From NCBI GenBank assembly GCA_035473115.1, contig DATION010000001.1, positions 461-64,460 of the forward strand: 64,000 nt of DNA. The letters run 5' to 3'. Of the stretch, positions 12,466 through 64,000 are shown in pieces (position 1 is the first letter of the stretch; each line of letters starts with the position of its first letter). The stretch is from Candidatus Udaeobacter sp. Its GTDB lineage: Bacteria > Patescibacteriota > Patescibacteriia > Magasanikbacterales > GWA2-37-8. The notes under the pieces were generated by a model, which searched no databases, was not told the DNA's origin, and saw nothing but the letters and a program-made list of their open reading frames with translations. The position numbers and the translations under genes are program-made.

Positions 12466-12541
12466 AAAAGCACCGACCCCCTTCTTGCGAAAAAGGTCGG
12501 CTTGACTAGCGCATAGTCACGAGACTGCTGTCTGCAGTCTC
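12466..12541 (-). terminator. Two hairpins after the RCC1 gene
   Basis: Perfect 9-bp stem CGAGACTGC/GCAGTCTCG. Then a CCGACC/GGTCGG stem followed on the minus strand by a T-rich run. Confidence 0.45.
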
Positions 12542-12557
12542 GGTTCGGTCTCCTGTA

Positions 12558-13883: not shown

Positions 13884-13946
13884 TTGTTTCCCTTTCAGTC
13901 GTAACTCTACGTGTCTGTATCAGCCATCCGAATTGATGGCGGCGCA

Positions 13947-13975
13947 ATCTTAGCAGATAGGCCAAAAAATGTCAA
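13947..13975 (-). promoter_or_regulatory. Sigma-70-type promoter for the RCC1 gene
   Basis: Minus strand: TTGACA, 17-nt spacer, TAAGAT. The same style of element recurs at the other GC-rich ORFs. Confidence 0.5.
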
Positions 13976-19943: not shown

Positions 19944-20004
19944 ATGTTTTAATCAAAAGAAAACTGACCGTAGGGGGGGTCGTTGGCTATACAGAATAAA
20001 TTTG

Positions 20005-20076
20005 CTCCGGGGGCTGGACTCGAACCAGCGAAATCCACGTTAACAGCGTGGCGTTGTACCACTCAACTACCCCGGA
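20005..20076 (-). tRNA. tRNA-Asn (anticodon GTT)
   Basis: Manual cloverleaf: acceptor TCCGGGG/CCCCGGA, D-stem GTTG/CAAC, anticodon stem CCACG/CGTGG with loop CTGTTAA, T-arm GCTGG-TTCGAGT-CCAGC. CCA not encoded. Confidence 0.85.
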
Positions 20077-22298: not shown

Positions 22299-22320
22299 AA
22301 TTTTAAATAAAAATTAAAAC

Positions 22321-22355
22321 AAAAAACAGCCTTTGATTAAAACGCTGTTTTTTGT
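22321..22355. repeat. 35-bp perfect direct repeat, copy 1 (also the bidirectional terminator of proS and of the gene at 22462-23244)
   Basis: AAAAAACAGCCTTTGATTAAAACGCTGTTTTTTGT, identical to 23482-23516. Hairpin AACAGC/GCTGTT with A/T flanks. Confidence 0.8.
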
Positions 22356-22461
22356 TTTTGTCCCGACCCATGCTTCACAGCTTTGGTCAGGACGAGTTGA
22401 GTATCCGCTTCACTTCAGGAGAACGATTTCGTTCTCAGTGAAGTAGAAGTCGGATCTTCTG

Positions 22462-23244
22462 TCAGTAGGCGACTCGCCACCTATTCCAGTGGCGGTGCTT
22501 CTTGTACTGATCACCATCATGACCACGGCGCATTTTGCGAACGCCGTGGTATTTAGATTCGATAGCGATCATCTCATCTTTGGTCATACGGTAGTAGCGG
22601 TCAGCGAAGTCGCCGTACCGCTCCTCGATCTTGTCCATCTCCACCTGCCTGATCCAGGCCTCTTCCAGCTGATCACCCTGTAGCTCGGTGATCATGCCGT
22701 ACTCGATCAGCCCAGCGGTGGCACTGATCAGTACTGCATCGATCAGAGGCATGAATCCATGACGGAGAGCGTACAGCGCCTGCAGCGCCGAATCGAGGTA
22801 CTTCTTCTTGAAATCCTCGATCTGCATCTGGCGCAGTGTCTCCTTCCTGAACTCTTCCTCTGCTTGGCGCTCTCGCTCAGCCCGCTGCTTGCGATCTTCC
22901 ACCTCAGCCTTGAGTGTGGAGATCAGCAGCGGCATTTGGTTCACCCACCGCTCGAGCCCGTCCACTTGCGTGGGGATGGGTCGGGCGGCGAGCGCGCGAA
23001 CCTGATCTCGGAACTCGCTGTCTGCGTCCGTTCCGTGCGGACAGTGCGAAGCCAGGTTGAGAACCTGCTCCTTGAACTGTTCCGCCGATCGGACGAGTTC
23101 ACGGCGACGCAGTTCGCCGCTTCGCTCCAGTTCCTGGAGCTGTTGAGCGGCTTCAGCTGCAGCCCGTGCCTGTTGGGCGCGGAGGTGGGTGGTCGTGTAT
23201 GACGACGACCGGCTGCTGACGATGACTTCGACCTTGCGTGGCAT
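22462..23244 (-). CDS. GC-rich hypothetical protein, predicted coiled-coil
   Basis: 260 aa, GC visibly about 60%. AGGAG SD (ACAGGAGACATCAG) before the ATG. Consensus promoter upstream. Confidence 0.5.
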   Translation of the reverse strand: MPRKVEVIVSSRSSSYTTTHLRAQQARAAAEAAQQLQELERSGELRRRELVRSAEQFKEQVLNLASHCPHGTDADSEFRDQVRALAARPIPTQVDGLERWVNQMPLLISTLKAEVEDRKQRAERERQAEEEFRKETLRQMQIEDFKKKYLDSALQALYALRHGFMPLIDAVLISATAGLIEYGMITELQGDQLEEAWIRQVEMDKIEERYGDFADRYYRMTKDEMIAIESKYHGVRKMRRGHDGDQYKKHRHWNRWRVAY

Positions 23245-23444
23245 CTGATGTCTCCTGTTGAAGTTGCGGTTGCCCGCACTTCTTCAGGTTGAACACCATT
23301 TGCCATGACGTTGACGTGCGGGGGAAATTGTCTTTTGTACTTCCCCTTTATAACTTCCAGATCATGTTGGTTTTCTCCTTCTCGGGTGGTTTTCCCGCAA
23401 AAAATAGTTATGGATAATTAGCTTTTGCAGAAAAACAACTGTAA

Positions 23445-23473: not shown

Positions 23474-23481
23474 GATGGAAC

Positions 23482-23516
23482 AAAAAACAGCCTTTGATTA
23501 AAACGCTGTTTTTTGT
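23482..23516. repeat. 35-bp perfect direct repeat, copy 2 (terminator of the gene at 23566-24258)
   Basis: Identical 35-mer to 22321-22355. The flanks differ. Confidence 0.8.
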
Positions 23517-23565
23517 GTTGGCCACGACTCCCTCCGTGAGTCATGGCGGATGTTGTACAACTACT

Positions 23566-24258
23566 TCAGCCGCCCTTTTTTCCTCGGCCCCCGCGCGCTG
23601 CCGCGCGGTGAACTTTGGCTCTCGCTGCCTTGTAGGCAGCGTGGGCCTTGGCCCCCGCGCTTGTGCCCGTGCTGGACTGCTTCGGCTGGTTCTCCTCGAG
23701 CCACTTCTCGTCCTGACAGCCATCGGCCATGCAGAACTTGAAGGAGACGGGGATCACTGCCTGGCAGCCCTGGCCAGAGCATCGGTGTCCGCAGTCCGAA
23801 CAGTAGTTCGGACCTTCGACTGGGAGTTCCGCGCCGCATCCATTCCCTTTGCAGAGTTTGGTAGTTGGCGCGAAGCTCTTGCATCCTTGGCAGAGCGGGT
23901 ACCATGTCGGGATCTGCCGACCACATCCACCCTTGCATGGGTGAATGCAGTCGTCACAGAGACCGAATCGTTTCCCGACCCGCACCTGGTTGGTGCATTG
24001 AGTGCCAGTTTCCGGATGTTCCCGGTTGCGGCACTGCTGGGTCTGGACAACGACTCGATCGGCCTTGGGTGGCGGTGCAGACTTCATGATGGTTGGTTCG
24101 GGCGTTGTTGCATCGCCCTCCTCCATCACAGCCGTGTGGATGGTCGCCTGTGGCGAGGCCGCTGGCGCCTCGCAGTTGGCGACTGCCTGGACAGGCTGGG
24201 TCTGCATGAGCACAGCAGAGAGAACTTCTTCCAGAACGTTGACGAGATCAGTGAGCAT
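23566..24258 (-). CDS. GC-rich Cys-rich hypothetical protein (multiple CxxC pairs)
   Basis: Start placed at MLTDL (24258), which has an AGGAGA SD 6 nt upstream. The ORF track extends it to 24303. CDDC, CQGC, CSDC and related pairs suggest zinc-ribbon-like modules. Confidence 0.45.
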   Translation of the reverse strand: MLTDLVNVLEEVLSAVLMQTQPVQAVANCEAPAASPQATIHTAVMEEGDATTPEPTIMKSAPPPKADRVVVQTQQCRNREHPETGTQCTNQVRVGKRFGLCDDCIHPCKGGCGRQIPTWYPLCQGCKSFAPTTKLCKGNGCGAELPVEGPNYCSDCGHRCSGQGCQAVIPVSFKFCMADGCQDEKWLEENQPKQSSTGTSAGAKAHAAYKAARAKVHRAAARGGRGKKGG

Positions 24259-24516
24259 GAGAATCTCCTCGTGGGATGTAGTGAACGGGAATGAACCGCA
24301 CACTACTTCCCTGAGAGATCATCTCGTGATCACTAGGTTGATGTGCGGTAGATATTCACAAGCATAAAGCTTCAACGAAAATTTGGTTGTCGTTCCATGA
24401 TCCCCTCCGTAGGTAATTGTACAATGAACGCGGAAACGGCCGTCCGAAGGACAGTTATTCCGACGGAAAGAATTTTTTCCTTTCCCTAGGAACAACTTTC
24501 ATATGAGTAATAAAAG

Positions 24517-24545
24517 AGCATACTATAAAAAAGTATTTTTGTCAA
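24517..24545 (-). promoter_or_regulatory. Sigma-70-type promoter for the gene at 23566-24258
   Basis: Minus strand: TTGACA, 17-nt spacer, TATGCT. Followed by a roughly 280-nt 5' UTR. Confidence 0.45.
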
Positions 24546-24561
24546 GTATGGGCTGGAGAAT

Positions 24562-33920: not shown

Positions 33921-34007
33921 GTTTAAGTAAAATTTACCTAAAACTAAGTGCATCGTTTTATTTTTTATGGTATAATAAAAACCAATAAAGAAAGCCACTT
34001 TATTTTT

Positions 34008-37000
34008 ATGAAGAGGGGACAAATTTTTAGTTTATACCCAGTTCTCTTCAAGAGAAAATTAAAGAGATTATTTTTGTTGTTTAAAGAAAAATATAATCCG
34101 CATTTAATAATTATAAAAAAGAAATTTCATGTTACGGTGGCGGTAATTTTACTGACAGTAATTTTGGTAAATTTATTTCAATTTTGGTCAGTGCCGATAG
34201 TTCAGGGTGCTACCTATACTTTTGTGCAAAGAGATTGGAGCGGAGGAGTTAGTAATTCTGTAATTGTTCATCCTGATAATCAAACCGGTTGGAATAGTTT
34301 TTCTACCAGCACAAATACCTTTACATCAGGAACCACCACAGTCTCTATCGCCAGCAGCACATACAGTTCTACTGACGACGGCACTTTTTCATCCACTGGC
34401 AGCGCAACTGGCGGCGGTTTTAGCAACGGTGCAACTTCCACTACTTCTATATCAGGCAGCGGCAGCTCTGCCTCCATTAAATTATCCGGTAGCACTACAG
34501 CGGTAAATCGTGTTACTGCCACAACTACAATGACTGGTGCTTTTTATCACGGAGGTGGTCAGATGGTTGGTGCTGCTGGATCTGATTATTTATATATTAT
34601 TGAAGGAGGTAATCGAGCTGCCCCACTGCGTCGTTTGACTATCTCAACTGCTGCTACTTCCAGTTTGGCCACTTATACCTATGCGTATTTTGGCGCTCAA
34701 TTGCTTTGGAATGGCAGTGATGATTATATTTATTTAGCTGAAGGGCAAAATGATAAATTTGATCGTTATTCAATATCAGGTAATTCATGGACTTCAATGG
34801 CTAATTTTCCGGCATCTTTACCAACTGATGTTTCAGAAACTGCTGCTTTACGTTACAACACAGAAGATTACATTTATTTTTTTAGAGGCAGCAGATTTGC
34901 TGATTTTTACCGTTACTCAATCAGCGGCAACAGTTGGTCTTCACTAACCTCATTACCAATAGTAGCTGGTTATGGTATTCAGGCAACAAGAGATGCAAAC
35001 AGCGATAGTATATATGTTTTACCTGCCAATGGTACTAATTTTTATCGCTATTCTATCGCTGGAGATTCGTGGACATCTATGGCAGCTGTTCCTTTATCTT
35101 TTGGTACTACTACAAATGCCGGTATTTTGCATGATGAAGGCAGTGATTATATTTATCTTTTAGTCGGAGATCATCTGTATAGGTATTCAATTAGTGGTAA
35201 CTCCTGGACAACTATGGCTGACGCTTCGTCGGTAAATCCTGATTTTGGTACAACATTATTGCATACTGCCGGCGAAGACACAATTTATGTGACTGGCCAA
35301 TGGGATTGTTGTGCTTCTGTGAGGGTATGGGCATATTCTATTAGCGGCGACAGCTGGACACAGTATGCTATAGTTTCAAACCATAGTGGTGGTTATGGTT
35401 CGCCAAATAAAACAGCTTTTCGTCGTACTTCTGATGAGTCTTTTTATTTTATTACGGCTGCTGGTGGAGATAGTGAAGTGTTCAAATATACAATTAGTCA
35501 AACGATATATAATTCTTCTGGCAACTTTACATCTGCCAGCCTGGATTTAGGGGTTGCCAAAATGAATTCTTTGTCTTGGACCAGCACAACTCCGTCCGGA
35601 GTTGGGAGTAATTCAATCCAATTCCAACTAGCTGCCAATAATGATAACAGTACTTGGAATTATGTTGGTCCGGATGGCACAAATTCTACATTTTTTACTA
35701 GTAACGGCACAACTTCTTTTCCTTCATCTCTGCTAAACAAAAGATATTGGCGGTATAAAGCATTTTTAACTACTGCTGATACCACTGTTTCGCCATCGTT
35801 AGACAGCGTTACTTTTTCTTATTCCTCTTACGCAACCTCTAGCTCTTTAATTTCCTCTATATACGATACGGTTGATCCAACAAATGTTTTGGCCAGCATT
35901 GGTTGGAGCCCATTTTTGCCAACTAGCACTACTATTAAATTTCAACTGCGCACCGGATCTAGCACCTCCAGTATAAACTCGGCCACCTGGGTTGGTCCGG
36001 ATGGTACAGCCTCCACTTTTTTTACTAATAGTTCCGGAGAGACTACCACTTCCACTATGCGTGATGGATCCGGTGATAGATATTTCCAGTACAAGGCTTT
36101 CTTACAAACCACAAATCCTGCATTTACGCCGGTCCTTTCCAGCGTTACTAGCACCTATGTAGTTAATGCTAATCCGGAAATTCAAAATGTTTCCGCCAGT
36201 GAAAATGGTAGTGGTGTAGTAACTATTACTTATCAAGCCAGAGATCCTGATACTAGCACAGGTACTGTTAATCCGGGCTTTGTCAGCTCCACGTTTGAAT
36301 ACTTAGACGCCAACGGCGCTTATCAAACTATACCTGCCAATCAGCTTTCAGCCGGAGCAAATAGTAATTTGGCTGTTCAAGGAGTTAACTGGACTACCTC
36401 TACTGTTAGTTGGACATTGCCGTCCGGGCTTAATATTGCCGCTAGTCGGATAAGAGTAACGGTAAATGATAATGAAGCGGCGAATAACACCGCTGCCTCT
36501 TCTTCGCCTACCTTTCAGATAGATAGCGTTGCTCCATCGGCAACATCAGTAATTGTGGATGGTTCCCAAACACCAGCTCTGCTTACTTTTAATGTCAGTG
36601 ATAGTTCTACTTTATTCATGAAAGTTTCGGAAAATAGTACCTTATCAGATGTTTCTACCTGGTCAGCTTTTACAGCCACTACCACATTTACACTGAGTTC
36701 TAATCCAGATACAGTTTATGCTCAGTTTAAAGATGTTTATGGTAATACCTCAACTATTGTTCATGCCACGACACCGCAAACCCCAAATAGTTTTATCGTT
36801 CAGGATAATTCCAATGTTTTAAATGGCGCTACTGATTATCGTCTTTTTGTAGCTTGGAGAGTAGTGGCTACTCCTAGTCCGGGCTTTGGCAGCTATAAAG
36901 TTTATCGATCTGAGGATCAATCCACCTGGACTTTAATTTCAACCATTAGTTCTATCAGTGATAATTTCGTTACTGACAATACCACTGTTTCAAATACTCT

Positions 37001-40000
37001 TTACTATTATAAAGTAAAAACTGTTGATGCGGATGGCAACACTTCAGTTTTTTCTTCCATTGTAAATGGGCGCGCTAATGGCGCCCAAGATGCTGGTGAA
37101 GGTGGAGGCGGGTCAGGTGTAGGCAGCGATCCGGTTATTACTTCGGTCGCCACTTCTTCACCTACTCCATCTTCTATCACCATTACTTGGGATACGGATG
37201 CTTTATCTAATTCTGTTGTTGGTTTTTCTACTACCCCAGGAAATTTTACCGATAATACCGTGACGGTTAATTCCATGGTAAATAATTCTTCCGGAGTAGG
37301 AAATCACAATGTGGTTTTGGGAGGACTTGTTCCAAATACTACTTATTATTTTAATGTAAAATCTGTTTCCGCCAGCAACGCTTCTTCAACCGATAGTAAT
37401 GGCGGTAATGGTTATATTTTTACCACTCCTTCCGGCCCGACTATTACCGGGGTTTCGGCCGTAGAAGTTAATAATACTTTTGCCAGAGTAGTTTGGAGTA
37501 CTTCAGAAAATTCTAACAGTTCAGTAATTTATTCCACTTCCACAAGCTTAACCAACTCTGTAACCACCAGTTCTGTTCAAATGGGCACTGCCCATGATAT
37601 GACTTTAACTGGTTTAACAGCCGGTACGAGATATTATTTTTACGTTCAATCGGTCAACGGATCCGGAGTAACTTCCACAGATAAAAATTTAGTAGGTGGC
37701 ATACTTCAATATTTTAATTTGGCGACTACTCTAGACAGCACCGGTCCGACAATTTCTTCCATTGCCACCACTACCAGCGATAACTCGGCTAACATTACTT
37801 GGAACACAAACGAAAGCGCCGATTCGCAAATTATTTATGGTCTTACGACTAGTTATGGCTCCACTACTACTTTAGATAGTACTTTTACTACTCAACATTT
37901 AATGACTCTCTCGGGACTTAGTTCTTCAACAGCTTATCATTTCAAAATATTATCCAGAGATAAAAATAATAATTTAACAGCTTCAGCTGATCAATTAATA
38001 ATTACTTCCGCTACTCCCGATACTACCGCGCCAATTATTACTAGTGTTGCCACCTCTAGCGTATCTCTGACCGGCGCCACTGTTACTTGGACAACAGACG
38101 AGTTAGCTTCCTCAATTGTTGAATACGGTATTACCACTTCTTCATATAGCAGTCTGGCTGGTTCAAATTCCGATTCAGTCACTTCGCATTCTGTTTCTTT
38201 AGCTAGTCTGAGCGGCAATACTGCTTATTATTTTAGAGTTAGATCAGCTGATTCGGCCGGCAATTCGGCCATGAGTGATAATAGCGGCCAGGGCTGGCAA
38301 TTTGTTACCGTAGCCGATACCACTGGTCCGGTAATTTCGGATGTAAATCTTTTGGTCAATGATACTTCGGTAGCAATTTCTTGGACAACCAATGAGCCGG
38401 CTAGTTCAGAAGTTGATTATGATACAACTTCCAGTACATTCGGTTTTTCTAGCTCCACTGCTTCACTCGTTACCAACCATACAATTACTATTACCGGTTT
38501 AACAACTAATGTTACTTATTTCTTCCGCCTAAAATCCACGGATAGTGCTGGTAATACTACTATAGATAATAATGGCGGTGCTGCTTATAGCTTTACTACT
38601 CAACAGACTCCGGGCTTGGTTAGAGTAGGTGGCGGCGGTGGCGGAGCGCCAAGAGATACCGATCCTCCGGAAATTAGCAATCTTAGCATAACCGATATTG
38701 CTCCTAGCTCAGCTAGTGTTATTTGGCAAACCAGTGAAGATGGTAATTCTTTGGTACGGTTTGGATCAAGTATTAAATATGGAACTTTAACCGGTAATGA
38801 TTCAGAACTGCTTACTTCCAAACATAATGTCAGTCTGTTTGATTTAAAACCAGGACAAACCTATCATCTAAGAGCCGTAACTTATGATGCTGCCGGTAAT
38901 CGCGCCGAATCAATCGATAAAACTTTTTCAACTTTGAATTCAGACGGTTCGGAAGTTACCCCAAGCACTAGCACCGAAAAGACACCGGAAGAAGAGGTGA
39001 CTCCGGAAACCCAATTTATATCCGATTCTTTGCAGAAGGCTTCAAGTCAATCTTTGCAAAAGTTCCTAGCTGATATAGCTTCTAATCCATTCTTGAAAAA
39101 TATTCCTGAAGATAAGTTTATTCAAGCTATTTTCGAAATGACCAGTAAAGTAGTTGAAGCTCCGACCATCGTTGGAGTTAAACCGACAGTAGAAGTAAAA
39201 GGAACCTCCGCTCTTATTAGGTGGTCGACAGATAAAAAATCTTCCTCTGAGTTAAACTATGCCAGAGATGTTGATTATAAGCCTGCTTCTAATAACGCTT
39301 ACACTAACGCAGCTGTTAATCCGGATGAATTTAGTGTTAACCATTCTGTACAATTAACTGGTCTTGATCCGGGAGTCTTATATCACTTTAAAGTAAGTTC
39401 AAAAGGCTTAATTGGTCCGGCAGCTGTCAGCGGTGACTATACTTTCTTAACCACCGGTGATCTGCCGATAATTTCCAATATTAAAGTGGCCAGACCAACT
39501 GAATCGCAGTCTTCTATCATAGTTGATTGGAGAACCAATATTCCGACTGCCGGTACCGTAGAATATAAGAATGTTAAATCCGGACAATCCTTGACCCAAG
39601 GAGACGAAACATTGCTCGTTAATCATGAAGTTGCTCTCAAAGGTTTGGAGGGCGGCGTAAATTATACTTTAGTTATCAAAGCTAGAGATGAATTCAAAAA
39701 CGAAGTTGCCAGTTTGCCGATAACATTCTCCACTCTTTTAGATAAGATAAGTCCGGTAATAACTAAACTTTCTTCCGAATCAACTTTATACCCGGGTAAA
39801 GATTCTAAAGTTCAAACTATTATTTCTTGGGAGACAGATGAGCCGGCTACTTCTCAAGTGTTCTATCAGGAAGGTTTGGCTGGTGATAATGTAATTTCGT
39901 TGCCGCTAGACACCTCGCTTAATACTCGCCACGTGGTGGTAATAACCAAATTTAAACCTGGCACAGTTTATAAATATTGGGTAGAATCAAAGGATCTGGC

Positions 40001-40124
40001 AGGCAATAATGGAAAGTCAGAAATATTTTCTATTCTTACGCCGCAGCAAAAAGAAACGATTGTTGATATTATTATTAATAATTTCCAATCAGTGTTTGGC
40101 TGGACAAAGAATATAGGTTTGTAG
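34008..40124 (+). CDS. Giant (about 2,038 aa) cell-surface protein: N-terminal TM anchor, Kelch-like beta-propeller repeats, then an array of fibronectin-III-like domains
   Basis: Start at the ATG downstream of an extended -10 (TGGTATAAT, about 33963-33971). Repeated YRYSISGNSWT blades. Many FN3-like units (VTWTTDE...S.VEYG..., ARVVWSTSENS...). Gly runs. Ser/Thr-rich. Confidence 0.7.
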   Translation: MKRGQIFSLYPVLFKRKLKRLFLLFKEKYNPHLIIIKKKFHVTVAVILLTVILVNLFQFWSVPIVQGATYTFVQRDWSGGVSNSVIVHPDNQTGWNSFSTSTNTFTSGTTTVSIASSTYSSTDDGTFSSTGSATGGGFSNGATSTTSISGSGSSASIKLSGSTTAVNRVTATTTMTGAFYHGGGQMVGAAGSDYLYIIEGGNRAAPLRRLTISTAATSSLATYTYAYFGAQLLWNGSDDYIYLAEGQNDKFDRYSISGNSWTSMANFPASLPTDVSETAALRYNTEDYIYFFRGSRFADFYRYSISGNSWSSLTSLPIVAGYGIQATRDANSDSIYVLPANGTNFYRYSIAGDSWTSMAAVPLSFGTTTNAGILHDEGSDYIYLLVGDHLYRYSISGNSWTTMADASSVNPDFGTTLLHTAGEDTIYVTGQWDCCASVRVWAYSISGDSWTQYAIVSNHSGGYGSPNKTAFRRTSDESFYFITAAGGDSEVFKYTISQTIYNSSGNFTSASLDLGVAKMNSLSWTSTTPSGVGSNSIQFQLAANNDNSTWNYVGPDGTNSTFFTSNGTTSFPSSLLNKRYWRYKAFLTTADTTVSPSLDSVTFSYSSYATSSSLISSIYDTVDPTNVLASIGWSPFLPTSTTIKFQLRTGSSTSSINSATWVGPDGTASTFFTNSSGETTTSTMRDGSGDRYFQYKAFLQTTNPAFTPVLSSVTSTYVVNANPEIQNVSASENGSGVVTITYQARDPDTSTGTVNPGFVSSTFEYLDANGAYQTIPANQLSAGANSNLAVQGVNWTTSTVSWTLPSGLNIAASRIRVTVNDNEAANNTAASSSPTFQIDSVAPSATSVIVDGSQTPALLTFNVSDSSTLFMKVSENSTLSDVSTWSAFTATTTFTLSSNPDTVYAQFKDVYGNTSTIVHATTPQTPNSFIVQDNSNVLNGATDYRLFVAWRVVATPSPGFGSYKVYRSEDQSTWTLISTISSISDNFVTDNTTVSNTLYYYKVKTVDADGNTSVFSSIVNGRANGAQDAGEGGGGSGVGSDPVITSVATSSPTPSSITITWDTDALSNSVVGFSTTPGNFTDNTVTVNSMVNNSSGVGNHNVVLGGLVPNTTYYFNVKSVSASNASSTDSNGGNGYIFTTPSGPTITGVSAVEVNNTFARVVWSTSENSNSSVIYSTSTSLTNSVTTSSVQMGTAHDMTLTGLTAGTRYYFYVQSVNGSGVTSTDKNLVGGILQYFNLATTLDSTGPTISSIATTTSDNSANITWNTNESADSQIIYGLTTSYGSTTTLDSTFTTQHLMTLSGLSSSTAYHFKILSRDKNNNLTASADQLIITSATPDTTAPIITSVATSSVSLTGATVTWTTDELASSIVEYGITTSSYSSLAGSNSDSVTSHSVSLASLSGNTAYYFRVRSADSAGNSAMSDNSGQGWQFVTVADTTGPVISDVNLLVNDTSVAISWTTNEPASSEVDYDTTSSTFGFSSSTASLVTNHTITITGLTTNVTYFFRLKSTDSAGNTTIDNNGGAAYSFTTQQTPGLVRVGGGGGGAPRDTDPPEISNLSITDIAPSSASVIWQTSEDGNSLVRFGSSIKYGTLTGNDSELLTSKHNVSLFDLKPGQTYHLRAVTYDAAGNRAESIDKTFSTLNSDGSEVTPSTSTEKTPEEEVTPETQFISDSLQKASSQSLQKFLADIASNPFLKNIPEDKFIQAIFEMTSKVVEAPTIVGVKPTVEVKGTSALIRWSTDKKSSSELNYARDVDYKPASNNAYTNAAVNPDEFSVNHSVQLTGLDPGVLYHFKVSSKGLIGPAAVSGDYTFLTTGDLPIISNIKVARPTESQSSIIVDWRTNIPTAGTVEYKNVKSGQSLTQGDETLLVNHEVALKGLEGGVNYTLVIKARDEFKNEVASLPITFSTLLDKISPVITKLSSESTLYPGKDSKVQTIISWETDEPATSQVFYQEGLAGDNVISLPLDTSLNTRHVVVITKFKPGTVYKYWVESKDLAGNNGKSEIFSILTPQQKETIVDIIINNFQSVFGWTKNIGL

Positions 40125-40158: not shown

Positions 40159-41496
40159 ATGGATCCGATTATTAAAACAGAAAACATTAAAGTTATTTAT
40201 AATAGAGGGCAGGATAATGAATATATCGCTCTTAATGATATAAGTATTGAGGTGTTTCCCCAGGAGTATACAATTTTTTTTGGACCTTCCGGCTGCGGGA
40301 AATCGACTTTGCTTTATACAATTCTTGGACTGCAAAGACTAAGCGAAGGAAAATTGTATATCCAGGGCCGGGATAGCGCCTCTTTTACAGAGGAAGAAAA
40401 GAGCAAGATGAGTTCACAGTTTTTTGGGATAGTTTTCCAAAATTTTAACTTGATATATTCTTTAAATGTTATTGATAATATCGCTCTGCCCCAGGTGTTT
40501 ATTGAAGCTAATCAGGAAGAAAGGCTGGCCAAAGCTCAAAGCCTGCTCACTCGTTTTGGCATAGCAACCAGAGCCAAGAATTTACCGGCATCTCTTTCGG
40601 GTGGTCAGCAGCAAAGAGTAGCCATTTGTCGATCTTTGATTAATGACCCTTTGATCCTTTTGGCTGATGAACCGGTTGGAAATTTGGATAGTGAATCTGC
40701 TAGAATAGTAATGCAATCGCTTTATGATATTAATAAGAAAGATAAAAAAACGGTAATTCTGGTTACTCACGATCCGAGCTATCTGCCATATGCCGACCGA
40801 GTCTATTATTTTAAAGATGCTAAGTTTGAAAAAGTTGTGCAAAATAGAAATCCTAAAAAAATGGTCAATGGCGGTATTGAAATTAAACCTAAGGGCAAAG
40901 AAGATGAAAACGGTGAATCTGATCTTTTGGGTGAATTAGAAAAATTAGCGCGAGTGCATCATTTTATGACCGTGCCTCAGTTAAAGGCTTGGAGCATAAC
41001 CAATTATCTGATCGATGATTTTACTATTAATCAGGTAGAAAGACTGGAACAATTTATGGAAGAAATGTTGGCTGGAAAATTAAGTCAGCATGCATTTTTT
41101 GAAAATCTAAATACCCCGTATAATGAAGGAGGCGTAGGTTTGTACAAAGGCACTGCTATCAGGTTCGTTAAAGAAACGGCCGCTATCTTAAAACAAGTCA
41201 ATGAATTTTTGGCAGAGGTAAAAAAGCATAATAATTCGGATAATAATATAAAAATATTGAGCATGTTAAGCAGATTCTTATTACAAGAACACCGGGGCAA
41301 TCTGAAAGCGGAAGAGATCGAAAGATTTGAAGCCGGCATCAGAGATCGTTTAAATGGCAGTATGAACTCTGTCCAGTTTAGTAAATTATTACATAAGCAT
41401 TTTGCAGATGGCGGCGTGGGGTTAAGCGTAACAACGGCCGAACATTTATCGGAGAGGCTGCAGATTATCCTGACCCAAGCTTATGAAGTACATTGA
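40159..41496 (+). CDS. ABC transporter ATP-binding protein (MacB/LolD-like) with a C-terminal extension of about 215 aa
   Basis: Walker A GPSGCGKST, signature LSGGQQQRV, Walker B LLADEP. Residues after about 230 have no recognised domain. Confidence 0.8.
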   Translation: MDPIIKTENIKVIYNRGQDNEYIALNDISIEVFPQEYTIFFGPSGCGKSTLLYTILGLQRLSEGKLYIQGRDSASFTEEEKSKMSSQFFGIVFQNFNLIYSLNVIDNIALPQVFIEANQEERLAKAQSLLTRFGIATRAKNLPASLSGGQQQRVAICRSLINDPLILLADEPVGNLDSESARIVMQSLYDINKKDKKTVILVTHDPSYLPYADRVYYFKDAKFEKVVQNRNPKKMVNGGIEIKPKGKEDENGESDLLGELEKLARVHHFMTVPQLKAWSITNYLIDDFTINQVERLEQFMEEMLAGKLSQHAFFENLNTPYNEGGVGLYKGTAIRFVKETAAILKQVNEFLAEVKKHNNSDNNIKILSMLSRFLLQEHRGNLKAEEIERFEAGIRDRLNGSMNSVQFSKLLHKHFADGGVGLSVTTAEHLSERLQIILTQAYEVH

Positions 41497-42682
41497 TCTG
41501 TTTTCTTTATCAACCAGAATGTTTCGCACTAATCCGTCACGTACCTGGCTGACAGTTTTAGGTATCAGTGTTGGAATTTCAGCAGTTTTATTTCTGGTCT
41601 CTTTTGGCTATGGGTTGCAGAATATTATTTTGCAAAAAATAGTTTTTAACCAGGCTTTGCTTAGTGTAGTGGTTACTCCCAGCAGTGACTTGATTGTTTT
41701 AGACGACCAGGCTTTGGCTGATATTGGTAAAATAAAAAATGTTGTTGATGTGGCCGGTTTGGCAAAATTTACAGGGCAGGTATCTCTGGACGGAATAAAT
41801 GGCACAGTCGATATGAGAGCGGTTAGCGCTTCTTTTTTGGCCTATGCCGGCACAATGGTAAAGTATGGAAATTTATACGAGGAAAAGGATCAAAATCAGA
41901 TTTTGATTTCTGACGCTGTTTTAAAATTATTTGGTATTACCGATGCCAGCACGGTGCTGGGAAAAAAAGTTAGTTTAAAAATTTTTGCCAATAAAAGCGG
42001 CGCCGATCAGTCGCAATTAGAAATTGTTGATATACCGGGCAGTTATACCATCAAAGGTGTTATAGAAGACAGCCAAGAGAGTTATATTTTTTTACCGCTT
42101 AAAGAAGTGACTCAGTATGTAAAAGTGGATCGTTATGAACAGGCACGGGTAAAAGTAAATAATAGTACTGATCTGGCGGGAGTCAAAGAAGAAGCTATAG
42201 CCAAAGGCTACCAAACCCAATCGCTATCGGAAACAATTGATCAAGCCAATAAAATCTTTCATGTGATCCAGATAGTCTTGGGTTTGTTTGGGGCCGTGGC
42301 TTTGATAGTTTCTTCTATCGGCATGTTTAATACGATGACTGTAACTTTGCTTGAACGTACCAATGAAATTGGTATTATGCGCGCTTTGGGAGCCAGCAAA
42401 TCAAATTTACGCAATTTATTTTTGGCTGAATCGGTAATCATTGGTTTTTTGGGCGGGTTGGTCGGCACGGCCTTGGGTATTATCGCCGGTCAAATTTTTA
42501 ATTTAATTATCAATGGTTTGGCTGCTAAGTTTGGCGGAGCCAAAATATCTTTATTTGTTTATCCAATTTCTTTTTTGTTAATAATTGTTTTCCTTTCATT
42601 ATTTATTGGTTTTTTGTCAGGAATATTTCCGGCGCGCCGGGCTGCAGGTATGGATCCGTTGGAAGCTTTGCGCTATAAGTAA
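41483..42682 (+). CDS. ABC transporter permease, FtsX/MacB family
   Basis: N-terminal TM, large periplasmic domain, C-terminal FtsX 3-TM bundle. Confidence 0.8.
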   Translation: MKYIDLFSLSTRMFRTNPSRTWLTVLGISVGISAVLFLVSFGYGLQNIILQKIVFNQALLSVVVTPSSDLIVLDDQALADIGKIKNVVDVAGLAKFTGQVSLDGINGTVDMRAVSASFLAYAGTMVKYGNLYEEKDQNQILISDAVLKLFGITDASTVLGKKVSLKIFANKSGADQSQLEIVDIPGSYTIKGVIEDSQESYIFLPLKEVTQYVKVDRYEQARVKVNNSTDLAGVKEEAIAKGYQTQSLSETIDQANKIFHVIQIVLGLFGAVALIVSSIGMFNTMTVTLLERTNEIGIMRALGASKSNLRNLFLAESVIIGFLGGLVGTALGIIAGQIFNLIINGLAAKFGGAKISLFVYPISFLLIIVFLSLFIGFLSGIFPARRAAGMDPLEALRYK

Positions 42683-60158: not shown

Positions 60159-61451
60159 ATGCAAGTTTTTATTAAAAATTTGATGGATTTGGTGGGTCAG
60201 GAGGTAGAAATTAAAGGCTGGTTATATAATAAACGATCTTCCGGGCCGATCTCTTTTTTGGAGTTGCGTGATGGCACGGGCTGGATACAGGCAGTAGCGG
60301 TAAAATCTGGTTTAAGTGAAGAAGTATGGGCTTTGGTAGACAAAGCTAGTCAGGAGTCTTCAGTGGTAGTTGTGGGAACTGTCAGCAAGCATCCAAAAAA
60401 AGAAAATGTTTATGAATTACAGGTAAAAGATTTTAAGATTATTCAATTAGCCCAAGAATACCCAATTGCTCACAAAGAGCACGGGCCAGATTTTTTGATG
60501 GATAATCGCCATTTATGGCTGCGCAGCAAAAGGCAGTGGGCAATTTTGCGCGTCCGTGACGCCATCATCACCGCCATAGGCGAATACTTGCATCAGCAAA
60601 ATTTTATTAAAGTTGATTCGCCAGTGTTTACTCCTAATGCTTGTGAAGGTACTTCTACGCTTTTTCCGGTTCCATATTTTGATATCGGCACTGCTTACTT
60701 GTCTCAATCCGGTCAACTATATATAGAAGCAGCTATTGCTTCGGTTGGCCGATGTTATGATTTTGGTCCGGTATTTAGAGCGGAAAAGAGTAAAACCAAA
60801 CGCCACTTAACAGAATTTTGGATGATGGATGCCGAAGCGGCTTTTGTAGAGCATGCAGAAAATTTAAAAATTCAAGAAGGATTAGTACGGCATATTATTC
60901 GTTACTGTTTAAAAAATTGTTTGGAAGAATTACAAATTTTAGAACGCAATCTTGAGCCTTTGCAAAAAGCTGATCAGCCGTTTACTCATTATACTTATGA
61001 TCAGGCGATTGCTAAATTGCATGAAGTTGGTTCGGATATTAAGTATGGCGAAGATTTGGGCAATGATGACGAAGGTTTGCTTACCAAAGACTCGGCTGTA
61101 CCGGTATTTATTACCAAGTGGCCAAAAACAATCAAGCCTTTTTATATGAAGCGTGATCCGGAAAATACCGAGCTCGTCTTAAATGATGATTTGATTGCTA
61201 CCGAAGGCGCTGGTGAGCTGATTGGCGGTAGTCAGCGTGAAGATGATTTTGATTTATTGTTATCTAGAATAAAAGCTGAAGGTCTGGACGAGTCTGATTA
61301 TGATTGGTATCTGGATTTACGCAAATATGGCAGTGTGCCGCATTCTGGTTTTGGTATTGGTCTAGAGCGCACGGTGCGTTGGATTACGGGCGTAGAACAT
61401 ATTCGAGAATGTATTCCTTTTCCTCGGACTATTGGTAGGTTGAGACCATAA
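60159..61451 (+). CDS. asnS: Asparagine--tRNA ligase
   Basis: Class IIb. GGSQRE and VPHSGFGIGLER...IPFPR closely match AsnRS motif 3. Confidence 0.8.
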   Translation: MQVFIKNLMDLVGQEVEIKGWLYNKRSSGPISFLELRDGTGWIQAVAVKSGLSEEVWALVDKASQESSVVVVGTVSKHPKKENVYELQVKDFKIIQLAQEYPIAHKEHGPDFLMDNRHLWLRSKRQWAILRVRDAIITAIGEYLHQQNFIKVDSPVFTPNACEGTSTLFPVPYFDIGTAYLSQSGQLYIEAAIASVGRCYDFGPVFRAEKSKTKRHLTEFWMMDAEAAFVEHAENLKIQEGLVRHIIRYCLKNCLEELQILERNLEPLQKADQPFTHYTYDQAIAKLHEVGSDIKYGEDLGNDDEGLLTKDSAVPVFITKWPKTIKPFYMKRDPENTELVLNDDLIATEGAGELIGGSQREDDFDLLLSRIKAEGLDESDYDWYLDLRKYGSVPHSGFGIGLERTVRWITGVEHIRECIPFPRTIGRLRP

Positions 61452-61483
61452 AAGAGGTCAAAGAAAATCAAGTTAAACAAAAA

Positions 61484-61557
61484 AACCGCTAATCTTAGCG
61501 GTTTTTTTGTTTTATAACAATAGGAGTATTGACTAAAAGTTAAAAGTAGTATATATT
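61484..61557 (+). promoter_or_regulatory. Cassette 1 terminator-promoter unit
   Basis: Hairpin ACCGCTAA-TCT-TAGCGGT with A6/T7 flanks (also the asnS terminator). Then TTGACT (61529), 17-nt spacer, TATATT (61552). Confidence 0.6.
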
Positions 61558-61602
61558 TGTGGCGCATGGCAACACGCCATGAATGCTAACAAGGAGATAT
61601 AG

Positions 61603-62124
61603 ATGAAGACCCTTCTGTTGACACTGGCATTCCTCCTCCCGATGGTAGCCCCTGGCTGTGCCATAGAGCCCGAAGGAGGCAGTGCCCCACCCGATGCGAG
61701 TGCGGCTCCGGCTCCGACTGCTGACAAGCCGACGGCCAGTACTCGTACGTCAGATCCCGATGAGGGGTTTCGCCAGGACTGCGACTGGTTTCCAGATCAG
61801 CAGGTCTGCGGGGAAGATGGCGGAGGCGGTGGTGGTGGAGGTGGCGGCGGAGGCGGTGGTTCGTCATGCTGGATGAGCTGCTCACCTTACACGTGTTGGC
61901 TCTACCTGGATGGTGCCCTTCATTGGACGTTCCAGTGTACTACTGGTTCGGGAAACAGCACCTGCTCAAGTTCGGGGTGCGGTTCATGTCCGGCTCAGGG
62001 CGTGACCCCAGGATGCATCACCGGTTGTGGCAATGGTGGGGGGGACGACTACGCTCTGGCATTGTGCCGAGCTACTTGCTGGATCAATTCAACCTCTACA
62101 TGCTCAGGTGGCTACACGTCATAG
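61603..62124 (+). CDS. GC-rich secreted Cys-rich protein with a poly-Gly tract (paralog of 63218-63724)
   Basis: Signal peptide ending APGC. Pro/Ala-rich linker. G16 run. C-terminal domain with about 14 Cys. AGGAG SD. Confidence 0.6.
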   Translation: MKTLLLTLAFLLPMVAPGCAIEPEGGSAPPDASAAPAPTADKPTASTRTSDPDEGFRQDCDWFPDQQVCGEDGGGGGGGGGGGGGGSSCWMSCSPYTCWLYLDGALHWTFQCTTGSGNSTCSSSGCGSCPAQGVTPGCITGCGNGGGDDYALALCRATCWINSTSTCSGGYTS

Positions 62125-62189
62125 TAACTTAGTGTATTAGTAGAACCGCACCGCGCAAGTGGTGACGCTTCTCCGATACTAGATGGCCC

Positions 62190-62235
62190 GGACCCGGTGC
62201 AGCACGAAGTGCAGCCCGGGTCCTTTGTTTTATTG
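62190..62235 (+). terminator. GC-rich terminator of cassette 1
   Basis: GGACCCGG...CCGGGTCC followed by TTTGTTTTATT. Confidence 0.55.
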
Positions 62236-62286
62236 ATCAATTTTAAAATAATTTCTAAGATTTTTATAAAAAATTAAATTTAATGT

Positions 62287-62367
62287 ATAGAAAAATCGCT
62301 AATTTTAGCGATTTTTTTGTATTTTTTACAAAAGGGTATTGACAAAAAAATTAAAATAGTGTATATT
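62287..62367 (+). promoter_or_regulatory. Cassette 2 terminator-promoter unit
   Basis: Hairpin ATCGCTAA-TTT-TAGCGAT with A/T flanks. Then TTGACA (62339), 17-nt spacer, TATATT (62362): a perfect consensus -35. Confidence 0.6.
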
Positions 62368-62437
62368 TCTTTTCGCCTGGCAATTAGTTGTCGGGTACGC
62401 GGCGATCATGCCGTGGTTACAGGAGGTTCTAGTAAGA

Positions 62438-62623
62438 ATGAAGAAGGCAATCAAGACGTCGCTCACGTTGAACAGCGAGACCGTTCGGCAGCTCGGCACC
62501 ACCGAGCTGAAGGGGGTCGTCGGCGGTTACCAAACCGCCACCCGTGGCAACACGGACTGTGCCTCCGAAGCGACGGGGTGCTACACGACCGAATGGTCGT
62601 GTCCGGGCTGGAGCTGCTGGTAG
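62438..62623 (+). CDS. Double-glycine-leader peptide precursor (bacteriocin- or RiPP-like), 61 aa
   Basis: AGGAGG SD 10 nt upstream. Leader MKKAIKTSLTLNSETVRQLGTTELKGVVGG fits the LxxxELxxVxGG motif. The 31-aa core is Thr/Ser-rich with 4 Cys (...EWSCPGWSCW). Confidence 0.55.
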   Translation: MKKAIKTSLTLNSETVRQLGTTELKGVVGGYQTATRGNTDCASEATGCYTTEWSCPGWSCW

Positions 62624-62948
62624 CAGCCACACCCCTTGATTCCATCACCGAATGGAAACCACCAACAATGGGAGGGCATAATATGCGAACATCGAACCAG
62701 TGACCTTTGGCTATCGTCGCACGAGATCCGTTCGTTTCGAGAAGTTTGGCGACTGTTGGTCGCCTGGTTACATGGTTACGAAAATCGCTGACCTTCCGCA
62801 AGGATCAGTCAGCACCGCTGCCCATCACTGATGGGCAAACACACGAACGGAGCTCCGCAAGAGCTCCGAAACAGTGAGGACAACTGAGTGTGTCCGGAGA
62901 AGCTCGGCCGCGCAAGCAGCAGTACTTCTCCGACACCACACGACCCCG

Positions 62949-62983
62949 ACCCGGTGCACGAGCACCGGGTTCTCTGTTTTTAT
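62949..62983 (+). terminator. GC-rich terminator of cassette 2
   Basis: CCCGGTGC-ACGA-GCACCGGG followed by TTCTCTGTTTTTATT. Confidence 0.55.
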
Positions 62984-63081
62984 TAAGGAGTTGTTAAGAT
63001 TAAATCGGCCTTTTATTTTATTTATTATTTTCAATAATTTTTGATATTTTAGTAAAAAATTAAATTTGACTTGGAGAAAAA

Positions 63082-63159
63082 ACTGCTAGCTCTAGTGGTT
63101 TTTTTGGTTTTATAAAAATGGAGAGGGGTATTGACCGAAAGTCAAAAGTAGTGTATATT
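63082..63159 (+). promoter_or_regulatory. Cassette 3 terminator-promoter unit
   Basis: Hairpin ACTGCTAG-CTC-TAGTGGT with A6/T7 flanks. Then TTGACC (63131), 17-nt spacer, TATATT (63154). Confidence 0.55.
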
Positions 63160-63217
63160 TGCTCCGCCCAACAATTTTGTTTGGGTACAGTAACCTCCCC
63201 CCGTATAGGAGATACAA

Positions 63218-63724
63218 GTGCAGAATAGTGTCAAGAAGAAGTTTGAGATCATGAAGACGGCAGCGTTCGTTCTGGCTCTGGCCTCAGGCTCCGCCTGTGC
63301 CATTCCCGACGGACCCAACACCTCAGATGCGGGTACCGATCCCACTGGGAGTTCCACGGTGTCGTTGCAAGAGCAGCAGGACTGCAATGCCGACCCATCA
63401 TCATGTTGGGGAGGTGGCGGTGACCCCAGTGGTGGAGGAGGTGGTGGCGGCGGAGGAGGTGCGGTGTGCGTTGCAGATACATGTTACCCCAAACTGTGTT
63501 CGTACGATCAGGATACGCACGGAAATTGGGGGTATTGGTGCATTAAGCACCCAGCTGCCGACGCGGGCTGCTATTCGAGTGGGTGCAACAAGTGCGCGCC
63601 TGCAGCTGCGGGTGCGAACAAGCCCTGTTTTGATCACTGCTACACCCTTCCTACTCAATACCAATGGGCGGTGTGCGCGGCAGGTTGCGGAAACTCAACT
63701 CCCAGCGTCTGTGTCAGCATTTGA
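63218..63724 (+). CDS. GC-rich secreted Cys-rich protein with a poly-Gly tract (paralog of 61603-62124)
   Basis: GTG start 5 nt after an AGGAGA SD. Signal peptide ...LALASGSAC. G-rich run. C-terminal domain with about 14 Cys. Confidence 0.55.
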   Translation: MQNSVKKKFEIMKTAAFVLALASGSACAIPDGPNTSDAGTDPTGSSTVSLQEQQDCNADPSSCWGGGGDPSGGGGGGGGGGAVCVADTCYPKLCSYDQDTHGNWGYWCIKHPAADAGCYSSGCNKCAPAAAGANKPCFDHCYTLPTQYQWAVCAAGCGNSTPSVCVSI

Positions 63725-63911
63725 GACGCTGGCCCCTTTCGATCCTATGGCATGACATAGTCAGCTAGGCTCGTCCTAGCTGGCGCCCACACTGGATGGG
63801 CAAATCACACGCGTTCTTCGGAGCGCGCGAACAAGTGAGAACAACTGAACGGTCGTTCGGAGGAGTGCCACGCGCAAGCGATTGGCGTTGCTCCGACACC
63901 AGATGACCCCG

Positions 63912-63950
63912 ACCCGGCGCAGCACCAAGAGTGTAGCGCCGGGTCTCTGT
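63912..63950 (+). terminator. GC-rich terminator of cassette 3
   Basis: ACCCGGCGC...GCGCCGGGT followed by CTCTGTATTTAT. Confidence 0.5.
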
Positions 63951-64000
63951 ATTTATAGGCATATTCAATTGACAAAGACTTATCGTTCAACTATACTGCT

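Follow-up and report, generated by a model that had tools for sequence, protein, structure and literature searches.

How do GC-rich genes, each with what appear to be its own promoter and terminator, come to stand one behind the other among the housekeeping genes of an AT-rich chromosome, and why should their non-coding flanks be better conserved than the products they encode? These questions are raised by three transcription units that follow asnS, the gene for asparaginyl-tRNA synthetase (AsnRS; 60159..61451, + strand, recognized by Pfam tRNA-synt_2 and an OB fold), near the end of a 64,000-nt stretch of contig DATION010000001.1, which we refer to as the window. The reading that we favor, with moderate confidence, treats the units as self-contained expression cassettes of a moron-like kind that were acquired horizontally and came to be stacked in a hot spot between asnS and the gene for tRNA-Leu(CAA), with a 3′ block common to all three acting in cis as a terminator and mRNA stabilizer.

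Architecture of the three units

The units lie head to tail downstream of asnS and are all built alike: an AT-rich hairpin is followed by a near-consensus sigma-70 promoter (10-11 of 12 consensus positions in each unit), a 5′ hairpin, a Shine-Dalgarno (SD) sequence, a GC-rich open reading frame (ORF) and the common 3′ block. Hairpins, promoters, SDs, ORFs and 3′ blocks were all located, bearing out the three tandem units of one layout that an earlier note on this DNA had proposed, and the consensus scan found 7 promoter-like sites against 2.2 expected. The composition of the units is foreign, at approximately 60% GC relative to a window background of 38%, and GC at third codon positions (GC3) is 0.57-0.85 in their ORFs vs. 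0.30-0.34 in host genes.

The flanks of the units are conserved over the ORFs. In pairwise comparisons between units the hairpin-plus-promoter module is 69-82% identical (z 5-9 relative to shuffles) and the 3′ block 65-68% identical (z 5-6.6), whereas identity in the 5′ untranslated region (UTR) and ORF is at or near random, with a z of 3.4 for the ORFs of units 1 and 3, whose third codon positions are 37% identical. This argues, at the level of sequence comparison, that the constraint on the regulatory shell is stronger than that on the encoded proteins.

Unit 1 opens with an A-run, AT-rich hairpin and T-run (61478..61509), a terminator-like site that would serve both as the asnS terminator and as the insulator of unit 1, and that is homologous to the hairpin found after asnS in related genomes (nhmmer E 2.3e-5). 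It is followed on the + strand, to which the promoters, ORFs and RNA elements of the other two units also belong, by the promoter TTGACT-17-TATATT (61529..61557, from the consensus scan and within repeat family D3), a 5′-terminal hairpin predicted by RNAfold (catggc-aacac-gccatg, 61565..61581), the SD aaggag (61591-61596) and an ORF of 173 aa (61603..62124) whose product has a lipoprotein-type signal, a Pro/Ala/Thr linker, a poly-Gly tract and a Cys-rich domain. The 3′ block of unit 1 occupies 62126..62234. Beyond it, an AT-rich spacer (62242..62295) that is 78% identical to 63028-63081 (repeat family D14) runs into the AT-rich hairpin of unit 2 (62285..62322), also a terminator-like site and, with its promoter, the best match to the hairpin and promoter of the relatives (nhmmer E 1.8e-8).

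The unit 2 promoter, TTGACA-17-TATATT (62339..62367; 11 of 12 positions in the consensus scan), precedes two hairpins predicted by RNAfold in the 5′ UTR (cctggcaa..ttgtcggg and cgcggc..gccgtg, 62376..62415), the first of which covaries with the unit 3 hairpin cccaacaa..ttgtttggg. The SD aggagg (62421-62426) and a 61-aa ORF (62438..62623) come next, the latter encoding a double-glycine (GG) leader (…ELKGVVGG) and a 31-aa core rich in Ser, Thr and Cys. An upstream 3′ UTR (62624..62877), in which RNAfold places hairpins H1 (62787-62813), H2 (62820-62836) and H3 (62849-62867, with a GCAA-type loop), separates this ORF from the 3′ block (62878..62979), made up of hairpin H4, linker and terminator. 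A decayed Cys-rich ORF was sought in the long 3′ UTR of unit 2 and no remnant was found.

In unit 3 the AT-rich hairpin (63077..63106), the promoter TTGACC-17-TATATT (63131..63159, consensus scan), a 5′-terminal hairpin (63167..63186) and the SD aggag (63207-63211) lead to an ORF of 168 aa when read from GTG (63218..63724), or 157 aa from the ATG at 63251, encoding a lipoprotein signal, a poly-Gly tract and a Cys-rich domain. The GTG, which stands behind GGAGATA, aligns with the ATG of unit 1 and with that of a homolog on the metagenomic contig L045, described below. The upstream 3′ UTR (63725..63838) again has three hairpins by RNAfold, H1 (63762-63782), H2 (63785-63801) and H3 (63810-63827, with a UUCG loop), and the 3′ block lies at 63839..63952.

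The 3′ block and its recurrence

The 3′ block, approximately 105 nt in length and equivalent to repeat family D4, comprises a long hairpin capped by a GCAA tetraloop (CGCGCAAG), a linker (CUCCGAYACYAGAUGRCCC(C/G)GA; CUCCGAUACUAGAUGG in unit 1) and a GC-rich hairpin with an interrupted U-run. Mean column identity is 78% in an alignment of the three window copies (A6), and their folds have z scores of -4.6 (unit 1), -5.1 (unit 2) and -4.9 (unit 3) relative to dinucleotide shuffles. A covariance model, R1, built from the same three copies recovers them at 95-109 bits (109, 96.8, and 95.4 bits for units 1, 2, and 3, respectively). The earlier note's observation that all three units share 3′ UTR blocks is thus upheld by the repeat, the alignment and the model alike. 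The only other significant match to R1 is on L045; there are no further copies elsewhere in the 64-kb window.

A GC-rich hairpin with an adjoining U-run, the configuration of an intrinsic terminator, is present in all three units. That of unit 2 was detected by the terminator scan (62948-62971, then CTCTGTTTTT), and units 1 and 3 have GC stems of 8-10 bp followed by interrupted U-runs (CCTTTGTTTTATT and CTCTGTATTTAT, respectively). In closing a monocistronic mRNA with GC-rich hairpins and a U-run, and in its fold z scores of about -5, the block resembles intrinsic terminators and 3′ stem-loop stabilizers such as repetitive extragenic palindromic (REP)-like elements and tandem-hairpin 3′ UTRs. 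It differs from them in that its conservation across paralogs and genomes exceeds the need of a generic terminator, in the GNRA-capped long hairpin and conserved linker upstream, and in having no Rfam family. When the window was searched at the Rfam gathering threshold the units had no match, and at E values up to 10 they gave only terminator-like noise. We regard the 3′ block as a candidate new RNA motif outside Rfam.

Covariation was assessed in four sequences, the three window copies and L045, with the alignment fitted to a structure that was derived from three of those. Standard pairs occupy 83% of cells in this alignment vs. 30-42% when the pairing partners are slid, and five pairs are changed on both sides, a number reached by 4 of 500 shuffles; taken at the sequence level, the structural evidence for the block is supportive but thin. 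Upstream of it, the three further hairpins common to units 2 and 3 offer a second view of pairing. It had been claimed that one hairpin shared by these units (GCCCATCACTGATGGGC vs. GCCCACACTGGATGGGC) carries compensatory changes; its GCCCA/TGGGC stem is, however, identical in both units and the differences lie only around the loop. Compensatory change between units 2 and 3 is found instead in the next hairpin, H3, where unit 2 has ggagctc-cgcaa-gagctcc and unit 3 has cgcgttc-ttcg-gagcgcg; the two differ wholly in sequence, and yet each is a perfect 7-bp tetraloop hairpin between conserved linear flanks. An antisense ORF running across the 3′ blocks was considered as a source of the conservation and rejected: the frames differ between units, and H3 changes wholly in sequence while its pairing is kept.

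The block recurs outside the locus. L045 is a metagenomic contig of 1,178 bp from an unrelated run and sample, and encodes P0241, a homolog of the unit 1 and 3 proteins. Directly after the P0241 stop codon is a 3′ block that R1 scores at 23.8 bits (E 4.9e-5), and that by blastn is 90% identical over 30 nt (E 5e-6) and matches all three window blocks. Upstream of P0241 are an AT-type promoter, a start region GGAGATAT(A/C)GATGAAGACC as in the window, and a 5′ hairpin (gtggc-gatcct-gccac) equivalent to that of unit 1, in which pairing is kept through an A-U to G-C change. The neighbors on L045 differ from those in the window, the gene downstream of P0241 being a Polysacc_synt gene with a GC3 of 0.86. 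Beyond its copy of the block, at 832-890, L045 has approximately 60 extra nucleotides and a second linker-terminator copy (CCACGACCC-GUGCCGUUCCGGCGCGGGUC-UUUUU) resembling unit 2, and part of the block thus seems, from the sequence, to have been duplicated there. The earlier note had offered lack of recurrence outside the locus as grounds for abandoning a selected element; because the block recurs on L045, beside a homologous ORF, those grounds fall away, and flank conservation, pairing statistics and recurrence together support a selected structured element in the 3′ UTR.

Searches of IMG/VR with the core CCCSGACCCGGYGCAGCAC gave 15 chance matches, none of which was confirmed by the covariance model, and AACCAGAGAGGATCTAGT had no match there. 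Six JGI contigs of 42-46% GC (L019, L020, L024, L026, L028, and L035) share a near-identical stretch (…GGGCTCCGACACCCACGGCCCCTGACCCGG…) that matches the pattern CTCCGAYAC(Y)N6-7CCCNGACCCGG; this stretch seems to be coding and is without the CGCGCAAG hairpin or a terminator, and we treated it as unrelated.

What has been conserved most strictly within the block is the linker together with the 5′ arm of the terminator, and this holds even on L045, where the 3′ arm is changed. It is feasible that the block is the source of a trans-acting small RNA (sRNA) derived from the 3′ UTR, or is a regulatory RNA bound by a protein, with CUCCGAYACYAGAUGRCCC(C/G)GA as the seed or binding site. A hairpin, a conserved stretch and a terminator are the usual shape of a 3′-UTR-derived sRNA, and the 90% identity with L045 over 30 nt in spite of the altered 3′ arm would suit such a role. 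However, the linker is partly predicted to be paired within the long hairpin, no target complementary to it was found in the 64-kb window, and the block has no Rfam relative, leading us to give this explanation a small chance.

The encoded products

The proteins of units 1 and 3 are 31% identical, a weak pairwise signal (E 0.013-0.035), and their relationship became clear through four homologs, P0241-P0244, that were identified at E values of 8.7e-21 to 2.4e-7 in an exhaustive HMMER search of 1.84 billion representatives. The six proteins have in common a signal peptide that ends in an invariant Cys, a Gly-rich tract and a C-terminal domain, and 12 Cys residues are invariant across all of them. 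Judged by these shared features, the paralogy of units 1 and 3 proposed earlier and their membership in one family are firm. The signal peptides of units 1 and 3 are of the lipoprotein type, with the invariant Cys at the end of the h-region, a feature that had previously been missed. The lipobox is canonical in P0241 (LTGC), P0243 (LIGC), and P0244 (LTAC), acceptable in unit 3 (GSAC) and atypical at position -2 in unit 1 (APGC); a signal peptide that ends in a lipobox-like site with the invariant Cys is present in six of six members. The unit 1 and 3 proteins had no match in Pfam, NCBIfam, PHROG, or PADLOC, nor in a word-indexed protein search, and GenBank phages and PLSDB plasmids gave no informative matches for the payloads. 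AlphaFold2 produced no usable model for the family (predicted local distance difference test score, pLDDT, of 38). On these searches it is a small, rare and unannotated family of Cys-rich lipoproteins.

One member, P0242, is encoded in the tail module of a T4-like phage contig of 185,486 bp and 69% GC (L043), listed in IMG/VR as IMGVR_UViG_3300018089_000001. Its gene (L043 10001-10717) is flanked by tail-tube (gp19-like) and baseplate genes, with a PTH2-like ORF before it and, 35 nt downstream, tRNA-Pro(tgg) and then a tRNA-Asn(att) call.

The ORF of unit 2 is unrelated to those of units 1 and 3, yet lies inside the same shell. Residues 1-30 of its product score 21.1 bits against NF038153 (lant_leader_L1a; cut-off 22; E 2.6e-4), and the peptide scores 17.6 bits against TIGR04149, both just below the curated cut-offs. 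The peptide has the GG-type leader that had been read from the sequence. We consider the product to be a putative precursor of a lanthipeptide-type ribosomally synthesized and post-translationally modified peptide (RiPP). It resembles the class I lanthipeptide and other GG-leader precursors of these two families in that its leader ends in GG and its core is rich in Ser, Thr and Cys; it differs from them in its scores and in its surroundings, as no LanB/LanC, radical S-adenosylmethionine maturase or C39-peptidase transporter was found among the subset of window ORFs that was scanned. The likeness that had been noted between its core and the Cys domain of the neighboring proteins is not significant (best E 0.36).

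The asnS to tRNA-Leu(CAA) site and the origin of the cassettes

The genes around the cassettes are ribosomal-protein, aminoacyl-tRNA synthetase and repair genes in an order that is syntenic with other genomes of the candidate phyla radiation (CPR), including the run SecY-FGase-Adk-MAP-RuvX-RecO and then AsnRS upstream of the units. The AsnRS encoded here shares 89-95% identity with proteins from metagenome-assembled genomes (MAGs) of Magasanikbacteria/Parcubacteria (CPR), and on the evidence of these genes the host is a Magasanikbacteria-like CPR bacterium. The contig was deposited in a MAG named Candidatus Udaeobacter sp., and an RCC1-repeat protein encoded in the window is 100% identical to the corresponding NCBI entry (HSR88786.1, VLK22_00090); with housekeeping genes of Magasanikbacteria type, the Udaeobacter label is probably the result of mis-binning. 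Exact look-ups of the unit 1 protein, AsnRS and the RCC1-repeat protein found nothing on record.

Seven related contigs have, after asnS, a tRNA-Leu(CAA) gene that carries its own promoter, and beyond it parA and parB. The last feature of the window is a fourth promoter, TTGACA-17-TATACT (63969..63997, + strand, consensus scan), which forms the right flank of the hot spot, and we infer that the gene behind it is tRNA-Leu(CAA) because a matching promoter precedes that tRNA gene in all seven relatives. The site is empty in L011 and L038: the AT hairpin is missing there, and the tRNA promoter begins 3-20 nt after the end of asnS. L009, the closest relative with 95% identity in AsnRS, has nothing but a promoter and a bare hairpin at the site, and no cassettes. 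In L010, L036/37, L040/41, and L042 there is one unit at the site, different from the window units and consisting of an AT hairpin, a consensus promoter, a body of 350-550 nt that is 53-58% GC and has stop codons in every frame, and finally a GGCCCGGCG…CGCCGGGC terminator. Detectable homology between these units and those of the window is confined to the AT hairpin and promoter (blastn E down to 5e-11; nhmmer E of 1.8e-8, 2.3e-5, and 0.18). Because the empty sites are without the AT hairpin, this hairpin belongs to the insert, and entire transcription units are gained and lost here; on this comparison the site is hypervariable.

The bodies of the relatives' units (L010 11330-11775, L036 11325-11825, L040 2690-3125, and L042 7235-7865) keep a GAACCAGAGAGGATCTAGTG motif and a hairpin of the form CGYAACA-[6 bp stem, loop UCGAG]-GCUNGURCG, with 97.7% of its cells paired and four pairs changed on both sides. 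From this pattern the GC-rich body may be a new structured RNA; alternatively, the hairpin may be overlapped by tiny ORFs of the form M..RNT(R/W)(F/I/L)E... A T-loop or tRNA-like reading of the GGTTCGAGACC hairpin was rejected, since positions 54/60 covary as a Watson-Crick pair and both ARAGORN and Rfam are silent there; Rfam gave no match at the gathering threshold for any of the relatives' inserts, and nothing beyond terminator-like noise at E values up to 10. DIMPL is a GC-rich intergenic region (GC-IGR) pipeline that targets structured RNAs of AT-rich genomes (PMC8723152). The relatives' inserts are like the RNAs it seeks in being long, GC-rich and intergenic, with covarying hairpins and no long ORF; the window units differ in encoding proteins, and homology of the relatives' bodies to the window 3′ UTRs is not established. 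The space between relA and gyrA is another variable slot in the relatives with differing GC-rich inserts: a minus-strand gene of approximately 290 aa in L011 (15200-16100), a 97-aa membrane protein in L036 (15870-16170) and a short GC-rich hairpin region in L010 (15270-15390).

Several features of the units recall the morons of phages, which are defined as bringing a promoter and a terminator of their own and as deviating in GC content from their neighbors (PMC3594210). The cassettes stand between genes that are adjacent in relatives, as the asnS stop and the tRNA-Leu promoter are in L011 and L038; each has a predicted promoter and factor-independent terminator, from consensus scan and folding; and their base composition is unlike that of the surrounding genes. 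Phage morons such as HK97 gene 15 are likewise independent transcription units of deviant GC, and often encode a protein of the membrane or cell surface (PMC3594210); P0242 is itself found in a phage tail module. The differences are that the present units are three in number, stacked in a cellular CPR chromosome, that conservation is higher in their shell, structured 3′ UTR included, than in the payloads, and that they are not in a phage or prophage genome and have no PHROG match for the payloads.

According to the reading that we favor, each cassette would bring, or reuse, one regulatory shell of AT hairpin, promoter, 5′-terminal hairpin, SD and structured 3′ tail. The AT-rich hairpin would insulate the cassette against read-through from upstream, and the 3′ block would, as its most economical role, act in cis on the RNA, ending transcription and leaving a stable stack of hairpins to protect the 3′ end of the mRNA. 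In combination with the 5′ hairpin, strong promoter and strong SD, this would yield a long-lived, highly expressed, insulated monocistronic mRNA for exported products, namely two divergent Cys-rich lipoproteins and one GG-leader RiPP-like peptide. The conserved shell could also supply the homology for swapping payloads by recombination.

A number of points weigh against this reading. The promoters, the terminators and the stabilizing role are deduced from consensus, and the term moron is an analogy, as these cassettes lie among housekeeping genes of a cellular chromosome and not in a prophage. Neither a high-identity donor nor a mobility gene was found. The 3′ block is known in four copies, with the model and alignment coming from three, which makes for weak covariation statistics, and on L045 its terminator arm is partly degenerate, with a second terminator after it. 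Scans with CTCCGAYAC(Y)N6-7CCCNGACCCGG gave only chance matches in GC-rich DNA (8 in GTDB genomes, 24 in JGI metagenomes, and 0 in IMG/VR), although this pattern is too strict in that it misses the L045 variant, and the lack of recurrence holds for it alone. In the non-coding bodies of the relatives, homology to the 3′ module is weakly suggested but not significant (R1 scores of 4.6-11.6 bits, in the right place), and a motif test of these bodies was weak (p 0.02 and 0.21).

A more far-reaching proposal is that the promoter with its 5′ hairpin and the 3′ block make up a portable shell, one that accompanies unrelated genes for secreted products (Cys-rich lipoproteins and a RiPP precursor) and serves them in turn, passing between GC-rich phages or bacteria and the AT-rich genomes of CPR and inserting at a dedicated hot spot next to tRNA-Leu. 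The 3′ block would then be more than a terminator, being either needed for capture or exchange of the cassette or the source of a trans-acting RNA, and the non-coding bodies of the relatives would belong to the same system. We hold this to be rather improbable.

Simple tandem duplication with neutral drift, in which a single ancestral unit gave rise to all three in place, with the promoter and 3′ block as its least-decayed remnants, fits with the units being adjacent and in one orientation, with the 78% identity of the D14 spacers, and with the homology of the unit 1 and 3 proteins. Drift would not, however, spare non-coding flanks at 65-82% identity while ORFs and 5′ UTRs became near random, and the persistence of the promoter module and 3′ block next to near-saturated ORFs therefore argues against it. 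Because the flanks outlast the ORFs and also surround the unrelated ORF of unit 2, because the nearest relative is without cassettes, and because units 1 and 3 are each nearer to proteins from other samples (P0241 and P0243, E 1e-10 to 1e-15) than to one another (E 0.035), the evidence points to constraint on the shell instead of duplication in place, as does retention of the 3′ block in another genome on L045. In-place duplication is accordingly an unlikely account, and the description of the units as tandem paralogous cassettes, while correct as to their tandem arrangement and the paralogy of units 1 and 3, is too simple.

It is similarly doubtful that the 3′ block, alone or jointly with the AT hairpin, serves as a DNA site for recombination or mobilization by which cassettes are captured or moved, in the manner of attC or of the hairpin ends used by HUH transposases. 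Such a site would explain conserved ends around variable payloads, units stacked at one tRNA-side hot spot and present or absent among close relatives, empty sites without the AT hairpin, and a single shell that encloses different ORF types and occurs in a different context on L045. However, no integrase or transposase was found among the syntenic neighbors (approximately 10 kb in the relatives, and upstream in the window), the two ends are unrelated to one another (AT hairpin vs. GC hairpins), unlike those of IS200/IS605 elements, and the 64-kb window has no more copies. The analogy with attC that the earlier note had raised is not supported. Integron cassettes are indeed tandem, small, single-ORF units that each end in a structured imperfect palindrome, but the present units have their own promoters, and their 3′ element ends in a terminator-like U-run and has no R′/R″ cores. 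No GTTRRRY/RYYYAAC cores were found at the junctions; GTTRRRY occurs among the units only at 61472 and 62467 and at none of the 3′ blocks. As for an intI or attI beside the array, no Phage_integrase domain lies within ±10 kb in the relatives, and the window ends before the downstream genes.

In Neisseria, minimal mobile elements are cassettes exchanged between conserved flanking genes through transformation and homologous recombination. The present site is similar to these in that one intergenic position holds different inserts or none, and no mobility genes; it differs in the conserved internal ends and foreign composition of its inserts, and exchange through transformation would here be an inference.

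Finally, an assembly or binning artifact, in which GC-rich pieces of another organism were misjoined to a CPR contig, might be suspected from the Udaeobacter name of the MAG and the sharp GC switches along the contig, but is hardly credible given that these switches fall at promoter/terminator boundaries six times in the window, that L045, an independent assembly, joins the same AT-type promoter to a GC-rich ORF, that relatives from several NCBI, JGI, and ENA assemblies have GC-rich bodies at the same site, and that a member of the RCC1 cluster is also on a separate Logan contig; it is the binning rather than the contig that looks wrong.

Elsewhere in the window there are three more GC-rich (58-62%) monocistronic islands with AT-type promoters and hairpin terminators, all on the minus strand (12480-13960, 22360-23330, and 23520-24560). 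They encode, respectively, the secreted RCC1-repeat protein (441 aa; 12558-13883), for which the best outside matches are 28-35% identical, a coiled-coil protein (260 aa) and a CxxC-rich protein (231 aa). Of these islands the second and third stand in tandem, and have in common an AT-rich hairpin of 50 nt with 92% identity between the two copies (22318-22367 and 23479-23528). ARAGORN called a tRNA-Ser(gct) within the RCC1 ORF (13672-13762, minus strand), on which Rfam is silent and which is likely a false positive, whereas a tRNA-Asn (20004-20076, minus strand) was confirmed by both programs. On the + strand, 33948-40124 encodes a protein of 2,058 aa in which Kelch motifs occur along with many FN3 and purple-acid-phosphatase-N-like repeats; the genes for an ABC ATPase and a MacB/FtsX-type permease come next (40159-42682).

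CPR bacteria are dependent on host cells and their genomes are tiny, and little is known of the ways in which they acquire and express accessory factors that are secreted or displayed at the surface. The locus described here is a recurrent insertion hot spot with foreign, individually promoted genes for exported products, and at least one of the payload families also occurs in a large phage whose host is GC-rich. It yields as candidates the RNA motif of the 3′ block, a Cys-rich lipoprotein family that has so far had no annotation and the covarying, GC-rich, RNA-like element of the relatives. If the shell is a general vehicle, it would represent a new route of gene flow into CPR genomes, and would also offer a ready-made strong expression cassette for these uncultivated organisms.

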